Translations under genes and position numbers: made by a program | Notes under the pieces: model-generated | Databases searched by the model: none | What the model was told of the DNA's origin: nothing | Seen by the model: only the letters and a program-made list of their open reading frames with translations | Shown: positions 11,723 to 56,637 of the stretch, piece by piece | How the letters are laid out: each line of letters starts with the position of its first letter | How positions within the stretch are numbered: the stretch's first letter is position 1 | NCBI RefSeq assembly: GCF_055900595.2 | Contig: NZ_CM148325.1 | Length of the DNA: 64,000 bases | Reading direction: 5' to 3' (one strand)

Positions 11723-12037
11723 ATGAATATTGTCTGTGTTGCCGCCTGTACGGCGGGTATTGCTCATACCTATATTGCTCGTGAAAAGTTAATCAAAGGA
11801 GCAAAAGCTCTGGGCCATACCATTAAAGTTGAAACCCAGGGAACCATTGGTACAGAAAATGAATTACAGGCGGCAGATATCTCTGCTGCTGACGTCGTGA
11901 TTCTTGCTGTAGATGTGAAAATAAAAGGAGAAGAACGCTTCACCAATAAACGTATTGTGCGAGTAAAGACAGAGATTGTCATTAAATCGCCCGTTCAATT
12001 TCTTGAAAAGGTCGAAAAATCACTGGGAAACAAATGA
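11723..12037 (+). CDS. PTS fructose-family EIIB component
   Basis: 104 aa; motif CTAGIAHTYIA matches fructose-type EIIB CxxGIAHT active-site Cys loop. Confidence 0.8.
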   Translation: MNIVCVAACTAGIAHTYIAREKLIKGAKALGHTIKVETQGTIGTENELQAADISAADVVILAVDVKIKGEERFTNKRIVRVKTEIVIKSPVQFLEKVEKSLGNK

Positions 12038-12061
12038 TCCTTATACTGGAGGGATCTTAAT

Positions 12062-13153
12062 ATGAAAGACAATAAAATTCCGGTTTCACAGGAAATTAAA
12101 AAACATTTATTAACCGGCATCTCGTGGATGATACCCCTTATTGTGGCCGCCGGGATATGTATTGCGTTGGGGCAAGTTCTTGGCGGTACAGATGTTGGTG
12201 AAAAAACAGGAACAATCCCGTGGATGCTTAATCAGATTGGCGGCTGGGGAATGGGGCTGATTGTGCCGCTGATTAGCGCGGCAATTGCCTATTCTATTGC
12301 CGATCGTCCTGGATTTGCCCCGGGCCTGATTGTCGGCTTTCTCTGCGGGCAAATCCATACCGGATTTATTGGCGGTATGTTGGGTGGTTTCCTGGTGGGC
12401 TACACCATTTTGCTACTTAAACGCTATATCCGCCTGCCGCAGTCGATGCAAGGACTCATGCCAATCATGGTGTTGCCGGTATTAAGCACCATTATCGGTG
12501 GGCTGTTAATGATGACGCTGATTGGTAAACCCATCGCCTGGTTACAAGAAGCACTGATTCATTTGCTCGAGTCGATGCAGGGCGGATCGCGCTTCCTGAT
12601 GGGGGCCATACTTGGCGCGATGGCAACCTTCGATTTCGGTGGTCCGGTAAATAAAACAATGTCGTTGTTTTCCGATGGCTTGCTGGTCAGCGGCGTCTAT
12701 GGGCCAGAAGCCGTGAAATTTGTCGGCTCAATCATCCCTCCGTTTGGCATCACACTTTCGTTCTTACTGACACGCCATAAATACACCCGTGCGGAGCGCG
12801 AGGCGCTGAAAGCCGCGTTTCCGATGGGGATCTGCATGATCACTGAAGGAGTCATTCCAATCGCCGCGCGTGACTTGCTGCGAGTGGTGGGATCTTGTGT
12901 GGTGGCTTCTGCGGTAGCTGGCGGCTTGATCATGGTGTGGGGCGTGGAGAGTCCGGTTCCGCATGGCGGCCTGTTTGTTGTGCCTTTGTTCACCCATCCT
13001 CTGCTGTTTTGCCTGGCGCTGGGTATAGGCACGGTGATTTGTGGCGTGATGCTTTCACTCTGGAAGAAACCGGTAACGGAACGTGACGAAGAGTTTGACG
13101 AACTGAGCGATCAAAAGCTGAAAGATGAAGAGATCACTTTCACCCTCGAATAA
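12062..13153 (+). CDS. PTS fructose-family EIIC permease
   Basis: 363 aa polytopic membrane protein directly after EIIA/EIIB genes. Confidence 0.8.
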   Translation: MKDNKIPVSQEIKKHLLTGISWMIPLIVAAGICIALGQVLGGTDVGEKTGTIPWMLNQIGGWGMGLIVPLISAAIAYSIADRPGFAPGLIVGFLCGQIHTGFIGGMLGGFLVGYTILLLKRYIRLPQSMQGLMPIMVLPVLSTIIGGLLMMTLIGKPIAWLQEALIHLLESMQGGSRFLMGAILGAMATFDFGGPVNKTMSLFSDGLLVSGVYGPEAVKFVGSIIPPFGITLSFLLTRHKYTRAEREALKAAFPMGICMITEGVIPIAARDLLRVVGSCVVASAVAGGLIMVWGVESPVPHGGLFVVPLFTHPLLFCLALGIGTVICGVMLSLWKKPVTERDEEFDELSDQKLKDEEITFTLE

Positions 13154-13164
13154 CCGGAGGCCCT

Positions 13165-14016
13165 ATGTTTGCCGATATGAAAAGTATGGTGATGAAAGCC
13201 TGGCATGAACATTACGCCTTGCTGGCGATCAACTGTATGAATCTGGAAAGTGCTCACGCAGCTATCCGCGTGGCGGAGAAGAATCGCGCTCCGATCATTC
13301 TCAATCTCTATCAGGGGCATCTGGCGCATTTTCCTGCACCCGTCGCGGCGGCAGTGGTTAAAACGCTCGCGGAATCTGCCTCAGTACCGGTCGCTCTGGC
13401 GCTTGATCATGGCAAAAATCCGGACTGTATTCGTCAGGCGTTTCGTGCTGGTTTCAGCGGATTAATGATTGATGCTTCTGCTTTTCCCCTGGAGGAAAAC
13501 GTGCGCCAGACCAGGGCGGTGGTGGAACTCGCCGCCGGCGCGCAGCTCTGCGTGGAAGGCGAACTGGGCCATCTGGCAGATGCGCCGCGTTACGACCAGG
13601 CCACCAATGCCGACCTGATGACGCAACCCACTGATGTGGAAACGTTTATCGCGCAGACAGGCATTGATCTACTGGCCGTCTCGGTAGGCACGGCGCACGG
13701 CATGTACGCGCCTGGTGTTGTACCTGCTATTGATTTTCAGCGTCTGGCGGAGATTTTCCACTGCTCGAGCGTGCCTCTGGCATTACATGGCGGTAGCGGT
13801 ACGCCGTTCGATCAGCTCCAGCTCTGTACGACGCTGGGGGTAGCAAAAATCAACGTGGGGGCGGCCATTTTTGAACGGGGGAAATCCGCGCTCCTGCATA
13901 CCCTCTGTCACGATATATCCATTGAACTGGTGGACGCGCTGAAAGCTATGGAACTGGCCTTCGAAGAAGCGGTTACACCGTATTTACAGGCGAGCGGCTC
14001 TATCGGCAAAGCCTGA
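13165..14016 (+). CDS. class II ketose-bisphosphate aldolase (GatY/KbaY/FbaA family), paralogue 1
   Basis: 283 aa; class II aldolase signature region ...LALDHGKN... and GxxxGxxKINV-type C-terminal pattern. Confidence 0.8.
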   Translation: MFADMKSMVMKAWHEHYALLAINCMNLESAHAAIRVAEKNRAPIILNLYQGHLAHFPAPVAAAVVKTLAESASVPVALALDHGKNPDCIRQAFRAGFSGLMIDASAFPLEENVRQTRAVVELAAGAQLCVEGELGHLADAPRYDQATNADLMTQPTDVETFIAQTGIDLLAVSVGTAHGMYAPGVVPAIDFQRLAEIFHCSSVPLALHGGSGTPFDQLQLCTTLGVAKINVGAAIFERGKSALLHTLCHDISIELVDALKAMELAFEEAVTPYLQASGSIGKA

Positions 14017-27610: not shown

Positions 27611-29954
<2,344 letters not shown>

Positions 29955-32915: not shown

Positions 32916-33875
32916 ATGGATGCTACCCGGATAACCCTTCTGGCGCTTGATTTGTTCGGCTCGCCGGGCTGGAGCGCCGATAAAGAAATACAGCGGCTGT
33001 ATGCGCTCAGTAATCATGCCGCACGCCATTACCGACGGATTATTCTTTCTAAGCGTCACGGCGGTCAGCGGGTGGTGTTAGCCCCTGATTACTTGCTCAA
33101 AACCGTACAGCGCAACATTCTTAAGAACGTCCTTTCACAATTCCCTCTTTCCCCTTTTGCTACCGCCTACCGACAGGGTCGCCCAATCGTCAGCAACGCG
33201 CAGCCTCACTGCCAACAGCCGCAGATCCTTAAACTCGATATCGAAAACTTTTTCGATAGCATTAGCTGGTTACAGGTCTGGCGTGTGTTTAGCCAGACCC
33301 AGTTGCCACGCAATGTGGTAACCATGCTGACCTGGCTTTGTTGCTATAACGACGCGTTACCGCAGGGGGCGCCAACTTCGCCTGCCATTTCCAATCTTGT
33401 GATGCGCCGTTTTGATGAGTGCATAGGGGAATGGTGTCAGGCTCGGGGAATTACCTACACCCGCTACTGCGATGACATGACCTTTTCTGGTCACTTCAAT
33501 GCCCGCCAGGTTAAAAATAAAGTATGCGGATTGTTAGCGGAGCTGGGCCTGAGCCTCAATCAACGCAAAAGTTGCCTGATAGCTGCCTGTAAGCGCCAGC
33601 AGGTAACCGGGATTGTTGTTAATCACAAGCCACAGCTTGCCCGTGAAGCGCGCCGGGCGCTGCGTCAGGAAGTACACTTGTGCCAAAAATATGGCGTTAT
33701 TTCGCATCTTAGTCATCGTGGTGAACTTGATCCTTCTGGCGATCTCCACGCACAGGCAACGGCGTATCTTTATGCTTTGCAGGGAAGAATAAACTGGTTA
33801 TTGCAAATCAATCCTGAGGATGAGGCCTTTAAACAGGCGAGGGTGAGTGTAAAGCGAATGCTGGTGGCATGGTAA
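32916..33875 (+). CDS. retron-type reverse transcriptase (Ec107-like, 319 aa)
   Basis: RT motifs LPQGAPTSPAISNL and YTRYCDDMTF (YxDD catalytic box) plus retron-specific VTG motif (QQVTGIVVNHKP); 319 aa if started at MDATRITL; located between pyrE and slmA. Confidence 0.85.
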   Translation: MDATRITLLALDLFGSPGWSADKEIQRLYALSNHAARHYRRIILSKRHGGQRVVLAPDYLLKTVQRNILKNVLSQFPLSPFATAYRQGRPIVSNAQPHCQQPQILKLDIENFFDSISWLQVWRVFSQTQLPRNVVTMLTWLCCYNDALPQGAPTSPAISNLVMRRFDECIGEWCQARGITYTRYCDDMTFSGHFNARQVKNKVCGLLAELGLSLNQRKSCLIAACKRQQVTGIVVNHKPQLAREARRALRQEVHLCQKYGVISHLSHRGELDPSGDLHAQATAYLYALQGRINWLLQINPEDEAFKQARVSVKRMLVAW

Positions 33876-52742: not shown

Positions 52743-52955
52743 AACTGTAACCTTCGAATTATGGAGTCAGAGACAATCTCAGACACGAATGCTTCTATCA
52801 TATCACTACACGGCGTTCGCTTCAGCCATTCGCCAAAAGTGAGATTGATGGACGTTATTTATCCTGAATTTTGCAGAAGTGTTAACGCGTCATCTCGTCG
52901 CAACCTATAAGTTTGGGTAATATGTGCTGGAATTTGCCCTGTCTGGAGAATCGCA

Positions 52956-54152
52956 ATGCGTGGAGAATTTTATCAGCAGTTAACCAACGATCTGGAAACC
53001 GCAAGGGCGGAAGGGTTGTTTAAAGAAGAGCGCATTATTACGTCTGCGCAACAAGCAGACATCACTGTGGCTGATGGAAGCCACGTCATTAACTTTTGTG
53101 CCAATAACTATCTCGGACTGGCGAATCATCCGGATCTGATTGCGGCGGCAAAGGCGGGAATGGATTCTCACGGTTTCGGCATGGCTTCGGTGCGTTTTAT
53201 TTGCGGCACTCAGGACAGCCATAAAGAGCTTGAACAAAAACTGGCGGCCTTCCTGGGGATGGAAGATGCGATTCTCTACTCTTCCTGCTTTGATGCTAAC
53301 GGTGGCCTGTTTGAAACGCTGCTGGGCGCGGAAGACGCCATTATCTCCGACGCACTGAACCACGCGTCTATTATTGATGGTGTGCGTCTGTGCAAAGCTA
53401 AACGCTATCGTTATGCCAACAACGATATGCAGGAGCTGGAAGCACGTCTGAAAGAAGCGCGTGAAGCCGGTGCGCGTCATATGCTGATTGCCACCGATGG
53501 TGTGTTCTCAATGGACGGCGTGATTGCCAACCTGAAAGGTGTTTGCGATCTCGCCGATAAATACGATGCGCTGGTGATGGTGGATGACTCTCACGCGGTC
53601 GGTTTTGTCGGTGAAAACGGTCGTGGCTCCCATGAATACTGCGATGTGATGGGCCGGGTCGATATTATCACCGGCACGCTCGGTAAAGCGCTGGGTGGCG
53701 CTTCTGGTGGTTATACCGCGGCGCGCAAAGAAGTGGTTGAGTGGCTGCGCCAGCGTTCTCGTCCGTACCTGTTCTCCAACTCGTTGGCACCGGCCATTGT
53801 TGCCGCTTCCATCAAAGTGCTGGAGATGGTTGAAGCGGGTAGCGAGCTGCGTGACCGTCTGTGGGCGAACGCGCGTCAGTTCCGTGAGCAAATGTCGGCG
53901 GCGGGCTTTACCCTGGCGGGTGCCGATCACGCCATTATTCCGGTCATGCTTGGCGATGCTGTAGTGGCGCAAAAATTTGCACGTGAACTGCAAAAAGAGG
54001 GCATTTACGTCACCGGTTTCTTCTATCCGGTCGTTCCTAAAGGTCAGGCGCGTATTCGTACCCAGATGTCTGCGGCGCATACCCCTGAGCAAATTACGCG
54101 TGCGGTAGAAGCGTTCACGCGTATTGGTAAACAACTGGGCGTAATCGCCTGA
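52956..54152 (+). CDS. kbl: 2-amino-3-ketobutyrate CoA ligase (glycine C-acetyltransferase)
   Basis: 398 aa PLP-dependent class II aminotransferase family. Confidence 0.95.
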
Positions 54153-54165
54153 GTGAGGATGTGAG

Positions 54166-55191
54166 ATGAAAGCGTTATCCAAACTGAAAGCGGAAGAGGG
54201 CATCTGGATGACCGACGTTCCTGAACCGGAACTCGGACATAACGATCTGCTGATTAAAATCCGTAAAACAGCCATCTGCGGGACTGACGTTCACATCTAT
54301 AACTGGGATGAGTGGTCGCAAAAAACCATCCCAGTACCGATGGTTGTAGGCCATGAATATGTCGGTGAGGTGGTTGGCATCGGTCAGGAAGTGAAAGGCT
54401 TCAAGATCGGCGATCGCGTTTCTGGCGAAGGCCATATCACTTGTGGTCATTGCCGCAACTGTCGTGGTGGCCGTACCCATTTGTGCCGCAACACGATAGG
54501 CGTTGGTGTTAATCGCCCGGGCTGCTTCGCCGAATATCTGGTGATCCCGGCATTCAACGCCTTCAAAATCCCCGACAATATCTCCGATGACTTAGCCGCA
54601 ATTTTCGACCCGTTCGGTAACGCCGTGCATACCGCGCTGTCGTTTGATCTGGTGGGCGAGGATGTGCTGGTCTCTGGTGCAGGCCCGATTGGTATTATGG
54701 CGGCGGCGGTGGCGAAACACGTTGGTGCACGTAACGTGGTGATTACTGATGTTAACGAATACCGCCTTGAGTTGGCGCGTAAAATGGGTATCACCCGTGC
54801 GGTTAACGTCGCTAAAGAGAACCTCAATGATGTGATGGCAGAACTGGGCATGACCGAAGGCTTTGATGTTGGTCTGGAAATGTCCGGTGCGCCGCCAGCG
54901 TTTCGTACAATGCTCGACACCATGAACCACGGCGGTCGCATTGCGATGCTGGGTATTCCGCCGTCTGATATGTCTATCGACTGGACCAAAGTGATCTTTA
55001 AGGGCTTGTTCATTAAAGGTATTTACGGTCGTGAGATGTTTGAAACCTGGTACAAGATGGCGGCGCTGATTCAGTCTGGCCTCGATCTCTCGCCGATCAT
55101 TACCCATCGTTTCTCTATCGATGATTTCCAGAAGGGCTTTGACGCTATGCGTTCGGGCCAGTCCGGGAAAGTTATTCTGAGCTGGGATTAA
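54166..55191 (+). CDS. tdh: L-threonine 3-dehydrogenase
   Basis: 341 aa zinc-dependent MDR dehydrogenase (GHEYVGEV, Cys-rich structural zinc site). Confidence 0.95.
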
Positions 55192-55243
55192 CACGAACAA
55201 GGGCTGGAATACCAGCCCTTGAAGCTGATGGCAAACACAAAAT

Positions 55244-55343
<100 letters not shown>

Positions 55344-55602
55344 TAAACAAAGCGCACTTGGTCTACAATCTGAAAATCCAAAATACCAGCCCTTTTCCCT
55401 GAGGATAATCTGTTAAATATGTAAAATCCTGTCAGTGTAATAAAGAGTTCGTAATTGCGCTGATCTCTTATATAGCTGTTCTCATTATCTCTCTACCCTG
55501 AAGTGACTCTCTCACCTGTAAAAATAATATCTCACAGGCTTAATGGTTTCTTAATACAAAGCCTGTAAAACATCAGGATAACTTCAGAGGTCGTCGGTAT
55601 TT

Positions 55603-56637
55603 ATGATGAACAGCACCAATAAACTCAGTGTTATTATCCCGTTATATAATGCGGGAGATGATTTCCGTACTTGCATGGAATCTTTAATCGCGCAAACCTG
55701 GACTGCTCTGGAAATCATTATTATTAACGATGGTTCAACGGATAATTCTGTTGAAATAGCAAAGCATTACGCGGAAATCTATCCGCACGTTCGTTTGCTG
55801 CATCAGGCGAATGCTGGCGCATCGGTAGCGCGTAATCGTGGGATCGAGGCAGCGACGGGTAAATATGTCGCTTTTGTCGATGCTGATGATGAGGTCTATC
55901 CCACCATGTACGAAACGCTGGTGACGATGGCCGAGCAGGACAACCTTGACGTGGCGCAGTGCAACGCTGACTGGTGTTTTCGTGAAACGGGAGAAACCTG
56001 GCAGTCCATCCCCACCGATCGCCTTCGCTCAACCGGCGTATTAACCGGCCCGGACTGGCTGCGAATGGGGCTTTCTTCCCGCCGTTGGACTCATGTTGTC
56101 TGGATGGGCATTTATCGTCGTGATGTCATTGCTAAAAATAACATTAAATTTATTGCCGGATTACATCATCAGGATATTGTCTGGACAACAGAATTTATGT
56201 TTAACGCGCAACGCGTGCGATATACCGAGCAATCGTTATATAAATATTATTTGCATAATACGTCAGTGAGCCGATTGAATAGACAGGGAAATAAAAACCT
56301 TAATTATCAACGCCACTATATTAAGATTACCCGACTGTTGGAAAAGTTAAATCGCGATTACGCAGACAGAATAGTGATTTACCCGGAATTTCATCAACAA
56401 ATAACTTACGAAGCATTACGTGTTTGCCATGCGGTACGTAAAGAGCCAGATATTATTACCCGCCAACGGATGATTGCTGAGATATTTACTTCCGGTATGT
56501 ATAAGCGCCTGATTTCCAATGTACGCAGCATAAAGGTGGGTTATCAGGCGTTACTGTGGTCTTTCCGCTTATGGCAATGGCGCGACAAAACGCGGTCGCA
56601 CCATCGCATTACGCGTAGCGCCTTTAATTTGCGCTAG
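55603..56637 (+). CDS. waaH: GT2-family LPS glycosyltransferase WaaH (YibD)
   Basis: 344 aa; GT2 motifs SVIIPLYN and DADD. Confidence 0.8.
   Translation: MMNSTNKLSVIIPLYNAGDDFRTCMESLIAQTWTALEIIIINDGSTDNSVEIAKHYAEIYPHVRLLHQANAGASVARNRGIEAATGKYVAFVDADDEVYPTMYETLVTMAEQDNLDVAQCNADWCFRETGETWQSIPTDRLRSTGVLTGPDWLRMGLSSRRWTHVVWMGIYRRDVIAKNNIKFIAGLHHQDIVWTTEFMFNAQRVRYTEQSLYKYYLHNTSVSRLNRQGNKNLNYQRHYIKITRLLEKLNRDYADRIVIYPEFHQQITYEALRVCHAVRKEPDIITRQRMIAEIFTSGMYKRLISNVRSIKVGYQALLWSFRLWQWRDKTRSHHRITRSAFNLR

Follow-up and report, generated by a model that had tools for sequence, protein, structure and literature searches.

In the 64,000-nt stretch of DNA analysed here (the window), the genes waaH and yibQ converge and run into each other at their stop codons. 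This locus raises the question of whether the shared 3' ends are genuine, where the two transcripts can then end and whether the transcription of one gene affects the expression of the other. The coding features at the junction are the following:

55603..56637, plus strand: waaH (yibD) coding sequence, 344 amino acids, UDP-glucuronate:LPS(HepIII) glycosyltransferase (ORF list, RefSeq, NF007482, PF00535)
56624..57583, minus strand: yibQ (renamed sddA) coding sequence, 319 amino acids, divergent polysaccharide deacetylase, last gene of the gpmM-envC-yibQ cluster (ORF list, RefSeq, PF04748)
56624..56637, both strands: tail-to-tail overlap of the two coding sequences, TTAATTTGCGCTAG (ORF list and raw sequence)
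56627..56869, minus strand: region encoding the C-terminal tail of YibQ (residues 239-319), outside the Pfam domain (C-terminal comparison)

The ORF listing and the raw sequence concordantly assign the 14 nt of the overlap to the 3' ends of both genes. These nucleotides encode the end ..(F)NLR* of WaaH on the plus strand and the end ..(A)SAN* of YibQ on the minus strand, with TAG at 56635-56637 serving as the stop codon of waaH and TAA at 56626-56624 as that of yibQ. Position 56626 represents codon position 1 in both reading frames, and consequently position 2 of the waaH codons lies opposite position 3 of the yibQ codons and position 3 of waaH opposite position 2 of yibQ. Both deduced proteins belong to well-defined families. 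WaaH matched the NCBIfam equivalog NF007482 with 627.6 bits (cut-off 423) over residues 1-334 of 344 and additionally Pfam PF00535, and YibQ matched Pfam PF04748 with 250.9 bits (cut-off 27.5) over residues 28-238 of 319; the family models NF007482 and PF04748 thus end before the respective C-termini.

The 14-nt convergent overlap that had been proposed in the original prediction is correct, as it is present not only in the ORF list and the raw sequence but also in the RefSeq annotation of two E. coli genomes. The genome of E. coli E200086 (NZ_CM128605.1) is 100% identical to the window over 55400-57800, a region in which most other E. coli are approximately 95% identical, and the RefSeq ends of waaH and yibQ in E200086 are exactly those of the window. 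In the RefSeq annotation of E. coli K-12 MG1655, yibQ is located at 3788101..3789060 (plus strand) and waaH at 3789047..3790081 (minus strand) with the same 14-nt overlap; the surroundings of the junction are 99% identical to the window and the overlap itself contains no difference. The overlap is therefore already part of the reference annotation and, in this sense, known.

The C-terminus of a protein is set by the stop codon of its gene, barring sequence error or recoding. An annotation artefact, in which one of the true C-termini would be shorter than the ORF call, had been named beforehand as the finding that would overturn the overlap. This explanation is scarcely conceivable, since homology supports both reading frames right to their stops, the ends are the same in K-12 RefSeq, and a comparison of orthologues placed both stop codons at the same positions in 13 sequences from seven genera.

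Convergent overlaps are by no means rare in E. coli, as 663 overlapping pairs of adjacent genes have been counted in this species, 75 of which are convergent (Huvet & Stumpf 2014, PMC4161906). Within the 64-kb window, two of the nine convergent junctions overlap, namely waaH/yibQ with 14 nt and ligB/yicG with 4 nt, and the other convergent junctions have gaps of just 24-188 nt. The ligB gene (plus strand) and the yicG gene (minus strand) share the nucleotides 29337-29340. The waaH/yibQ pair consists of two genuine genes with shared 3' ends on opposite strands and conserved stop codons, and it resembles the known convergent overlaps of E. coli (PMC4161906) in that two real genes share a few 3'-terminal codons as a result of the position of a stop codon that is conserved among relatives. 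There is no substantive difference from this class, apart from the fact that 14 nt exceeds the 4 nt shared by ligB and yicG, an overlap length that also occurs at waaH/yibQ itself in five other species.

The conservation of the junction was analyzed within and beyond E. coli. Of 5426 complete E. coli genomes, 5363 contained a single match to a 60-nt junction probe, and the annotation places both genes at the match. Furthermore, yibQ loci were sampled with one genome per species, of which 80 were fetched and, including E200086 and K-12, 83 were analyzed. A convergent waaH homologue, defined by at least 60% identity and by its location adjoining yibQ, was detected in 32 of the 83 loci, in the following configurations:

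13 of 32 loci: 14-nt overlap (E. coli, E. albertii, several Citrobacter, S. enterica subsp. diarizonae, a Leclercia MAG, Enterobacter sp. ENT03, Silvania confinis and Cedecea colo)
5 of 32 loci: 4-nt overlap
10 of 32 loci: abutting stop codons
4 of 32 loci: spacer of 10, 14, 72 or 113 nt, one each

The 13 sequences with the 14-nt form span the genera Escherichia, Citrobacter, Salmonella, Leclercia, Enterobacter, Silvania and Cedecea, and the geometry has been kept across these seven genera despite five to six variable positions within the overlap.

The C-terminal comparison revealed that the two proteins end in very different ways. The end of WaaH is fixed in position and carries the conserved sequence ..LLWSxRLWxWRDKTxSxxRxxRKALNLR* in every configuration of the junction. 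In YibQ, a conserved ..QHQWQGW motif is followed by an extreme end of 1-13 residues that varies across genera, with unconserved final residues such as ASAN, NAD, TPG, SEG, KTD, NPG and NTD. According to the study that renamed YibQ as SddA and published its deacetylase activity (bioRxiv 10.1101/2025.02.18.638797), residues 239-319 of the protein are predicted to be disordered and are dispensable for this activity; the tail gets cleaved, and docking into the Prc protease is predicted for its last residues. At the nucleotide level, the pairwise identity among genera amounted to 0.75 in the overlap itself, 0.63 in the last 30 nt that belong to waaH only and 0.41 in the 30 nt next to the overlap that belong to yibQ only. 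As judged from these alignments, the three values fit one constrained reading frame that carries the other as a passenger. Where the overlap measures 14 nt, reverse complementation of the conserved (Leu/Phe)-Asn codons of WaaH (TT-TAA-T or CT-CAA-T) yields, at the junction of these codons, the TAA or TGA with which yibQ ends, and it is the conservation of the WaaH codons that holds this stop in position. The stop codon of waaH, in turn, falls within yibQ codons that tolerate changes.

These data argue for an ordinary convergent overlap of two independent, well-characterised genes that has been inherited within the Enterobacteriaceae and has no dedicated function, a reading in which we have considerable confidence. 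The overlap would have originated passively, with the low-constraint tail of YibQ running on until the complement of the WaaH (Leu/Phe)-Asn codons provides a stop. One observation runs counter to a purely passive origin: 28 of the 32 species hold the two stops within the range from the 14-nt overlap to abutment, by way of three configurations. Accordingly, a junction free of any spacer could have been selected rather than merely tolerated.

The surroundings of yibQ differ markedly among species. In species without waaH, the DNA located 3' of yibQ is highly variable and contains another convergent gene at a distance of about 50-60 nt, a co-directional glycosyltransferase-like gene or a canonical intrinsic terminator. 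The 3' flank of yibQ thus appears to be a site at which the insertion of envelope genes varies. Within E. coli, some strains contain an IS1 element within waaH or in place of most of this gene (e.g. NZ_CP101705.1), and in strain G5 waaH is reduced to a 3' remnant of 114 nt that has retained the 14-nt overlap with yibQ.

With regard to transcription, the claim of the original prediction that the junction leaves no room for an intergenic terminator holds, as an overlap of 14 nt between the coding sequences allows for no spacer. Any terminator of either transcript must consequently be located inside the other gene. A consensus scan for intrinsic terminators, consisting of a hairpin and a U-tract, found none at the junction, and an Rfam search of 54000-60000 detected nothing at this position. 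Two structures relevant to the junction were examined individually:

56574..56607, minus strand: 13-bp hairpin in the yibQ-sense RNA, beginning 17 nt past the yibQ stop inside the waaH codons W-Q-W-R-D-K-T-R-S-H-H-R
56611..56640, either strand: palindromic bulged 10-bp stem-loop, ACGC-G-UAGCGC / 9-nt loop / GCGCUA-GCGU, centred on the overlap

Candidate waaH terminators in the yibQ tail, at 56700-56719 and 56755-56773 on the plus strand, were rejected: they form weak 6-bp stems, their conservation tracks the coding motif of YibQ, and other genera show a disrupted stem. The hairpin at 56574-56607 is more stable, with -23.0 kcal/mol and a z-score of -4.65 relative to shuffled sequences on the minus strand, and it is weaker on the plus strand (-16.8 kcal/mol) because two G-U pairs turn into C-A. 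As a conserved yibQ terminator or 3'-protecting structure, this hairpin was likewise dismissed, since the outer stem is lost outside Escherichia, covariation is lacking (75.0% of cells paired versus 74.8% in shuffles), the stem is not followed by a U-tract and no K-12 Term-seq 3' end is located there (PMC7815308). Its stability is nevertheless far above that of shuffled sequences, and the passive explanation of the overlap leaves the hairpin unaccounted for.

Published 3'-end data from K-12, the kind of evidence that had been proposed as a check, answered the question in part. Adams et al. 2021 (PMC7815308) list Term-seq 3' ends for three growth conditions, none of which is assigned to yibQ or waaH; the neighbouring ends are one within envC at 3786938 (plus strand) and the primary end of tdh at 3790287 (minus strand). 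The same study reported a Rho region at 3789384 (plus strand) that is antisense to waaH, with a Rho score of 5.55 and p=1.8e-15 (PMC7815308, Supplementary file 2). The position of such a region is coarse, as the method compares windows of 800 nt on each side. Since neither waaH nor yibQ differs in length between K-12 and the window, the coordinates can be mapped linearly, and a scan of nucleotide composition additionally pointed to a stretch closer to the yibQ stop:

56250..56350 (about 56300), minus strand: K-12 Rho region 3789384 (plus strand) after linear mapping, approximately 324 nt beyond the yibQ stop
56464..56603, minus strand: modest stretch with C in excess of G (C/G 1.2-1.43), +20 to +160 nt after the yibQ stop

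On the basis of its composition, the latter stretch is a possible candidate for a Rho loading region; it also holds the stable hairpin at 56574-56607. Termination inside the opposing gene, as the original prediction had claimed, is supported in the yibQ direction by the published Rho region. The published data show that in K-12, with a junction 99% identical to that of the window, read-through increases upon inhibition of Rho and that the gpmM-envC-yibQ transcript enters waaH as untranslated antisense RNA that is ended by Rho. This resembles the class of Rho-terminated antisense read-through (PMC7815308), in that the yibQ-sense RNA is untranslated past the stop codon, antisense to waaH and sensitive to bicyclomycin. 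It differs from this class in that yibQ is not known to have a defined rut site or a discrete 3' end and in that the bias of C over G is modest. In K-12, transcription of the gpmM-envC-yibQ cluster continues beyond the yibQ stop, and Rho ends the RNA within a few hundred nucleotides, leaving no discrete and stable 3' end. For the opposite direction, waaH transcripts probably end inside yibQ: mainly under phosphate limitation, they would likewise enter the region of the yibQ tail and would be ended by Rho and/or by an encounter with oncoming polymerases.

A second Rho region was reported within waaH on its own strand, at K-12 position 3790042 (minus strand) with a score of 5.77 and p=7e-13 (Adams et al. 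2021, PMC7815308). It maps linearly, and at coarse resolution, to about 55642 on the plus strand, approximately 40 nt into waaH, and suggests that Rho curtails waaH transcription early in LB-grown K-12 cells while the gene is uninduced.

The palindromic stem-loop at 56611-56640 raises the possibility of a bidirectional terminator that acts by collision and is embedded in coding sequence. For convergent gene pairs of E. coli, bidirectional terminators that are driven by collision were described by Ju et al. 2019, as related in Wang et al. 2022 (bioRxiv 10.1101/2022.10.23.513370). According to Wang et al., a stem-loop positions the head-on collisions, and such terminators do not resemble intrinsic ones (bioRxiv 10.1101/2022.10.23.513370). 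The likeness is that a convergent gene pair has a symmetric stem-loop at its boundary, and the structure at waaH/yibQ indeed spans the overlap exactly, forms equally on both strands and gives a weak covariation signal. In this alignment, seven cells changed on both sides, which was matched by 2 of 500 shuffles, and the covariation score of 0.171 was matched by 12 of 500 shuffles and equalled by a control slid by +1. Most of the double changes set Escherichia apart from the remaining sequences, which points to a small number of evolutionary events. With -13.5 kcal/mol (z -0.9) on the plus strand and -14.4 kcal/mol (z -1.4) on the minus strand, the stability is no better than that of shuffled sequences. 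There is no flanking U-tract on the minus strand, and the plus-strand tail reads UAAGUUUUG in the window strain and UAAACUUCG in K-12. The known collision-type terminators are described as intergenic and Rho-independent, with defined ends, whereas the waaH/yibQ stem-loop lies inside both coding sequences, its stem is unremarkable in stability, transcription in the yibQ direction depends on Rho for its termination, which takes place about 320 nt farther along, and the published lists give no defined 3' ends. Measured against this description, the published K-12 data provided neither Rho-independent termination nor defined 3' ends on both strands, and the Term-seq lists for the three conditions have no 3' end at the junction. 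Because of its ordinary stability and of a weak covariation that the slid control equals, the stem-loop was rejected as a bidirectional terminator, and a collision-type function is quite improbable.

The more far-reaching suggestion of the original prediction was that transcripts terminating inside the opposing gene could give rise to antisense interference. In its developed form, the junction would be a regulatory device, either because induction of waaH lowers yibQ/sddA by antisense pairing or polymerase collision or because Rho-limited read-through from gpmM-envC-yibQ silences waaH in phosphate-replete cells. The geometry forces the transcripts to overlap, yibQ-sense transcription enters waaH as Rho-limited antisense RNA, and the tight junction is conserved across genera. 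Moreover, both units are transcribed in low phosphate, with about 12,000-14,000 normalised counts for waaH and 2,000-2,400 for envC in the available part of the expression table of Fitzgerald et al. 2023 (PMC10294691, Table S1). This RNA-seq data set allows a comparison of cells that differ in waaH expression, since in low phosphate the values for waaH were 13,872 and 11,547 in the wild type versus 3,032 and 2,925 in the delta-phoB strain. This corresponds to a 4.3-fold higher expression in the wild type (log2 2.1, p=1.6e-22; PMC10294691). In the same comparison, envC changed by a log2 value of -0.4 (p=0.19; PMC10294691), and yibQ is not among the rows listed up to p=0.569 in the available part of the p-sorted Table S1 (PMC10294691), from which we infer that its change was not significant. 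In these rows, an inverse change in expression, as expected for cis-antisense control, was thus not observed, in a library that may be non-strand-specific and with a change in waaH of only about 4-fold. Accordingly, antisense interference between waaH and yibQ finds no support: yibQ and envC showed no significant change at a 4.3-fold difference in waaH. A study of transcriptional interference (PMC10349824) contributed no more than one uninformative entry for yibD. Additional arguments against a regulatory device are that the partnership is not obligatory, as unrelated genes or plain terminators follow yibQ in species lacking waaH, that E. coli strains with an IS1-disrupted or truncated waaH exist, and that convergent overlaps are common. 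Altogether, a regulatory role of the junction appears unlikely, and the interpretation given in the original prediction is partly supported as a whole. In an ordinary overlap of two independent genes, any interference would be too small to matter.

A related and very unlikely idea, against which the evidence is weak, is that the spacer-free junction has been selected and reciprocally tunes the glucuronylation of LPS and the deacetylation of septal peptidoglycan. If this were true, the cell-division cluster gpmM-envC-sddA would lower waaH expression in phosphate-replete cells through Rho-limited read-through, and waaH transcription during phosphate starvation would shorten the sddA mRNA at its 3' end or make this end unstable. 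It is this end that encodes the tail for which docking in Prc is predicted.

As a member of a common class that is present in the reference annotation, the waaH/yibQ overlap matters little in itself. It represents, however, a clean example of an overlap that is held in place, in which conserved C-terminal codons of WaaH supply the stop for the low-constraint tail of YibQ. In practical terms, the last four to five codons are common to waaH and sddA, and a C-terminal tag or scar introduced into one gene changes the other. Likewise, knocking out waaH takes away the region in which Rho normally ends the gpmM-envC-sddA transcript.

Several further observations were made in the window. Inside the start of envC, a terminator-like 12-bp hairpin with a T-rich tail is located at 58798..58772 on the minus strand, and the K-12 Term-seq 3' end at 3786938 (plus strand) lies 100 nt into envC (at about 58746), is not Rho-dependent and has a score of 1.04 (PMC7815308). 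The envC 5' region at 58746-58798 may therefore represent an intragenic attenuator or a processing site upstream of yibQ. On the other side of the junction, the spacer between tdh and waaH comprises 411 nt in the window versus 238 nt in K-12, and about 174 nt with REP-type sequence are inserted at the tdh terminator (55221-55394). This insertion is flanked by ATACCAGCCCTT on both sides (55209-55220 and 55383-55394), by which the 3' arm and the U-tract of the tdh terminator have been displaced downstream. The Rfam matches in this spacer were REP-derived and below threshold, namely naRNA4 at 55312-55348 (plus strand) and ES036 at 55266-55307 (minus strand). The htrL gene, which is located between kbl and rfaD in K-12, is missing in the window strain (around 52743-52955) and in strain G5. 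A coding sequence annotated as 'reverse transcriptase family protein' is located between pyrE and slmA (32916-33875, plus strand) and, as judged from its annotation, may specify a retron-type defence enzyme. Finally, the region 1952-5357 beside tRNA-Sec encodes a tyrosine recombinase/integrase and a tetratricopeptide-repeat protein along with a small hypothetical gene and looks like an island that has been integrated at selC.
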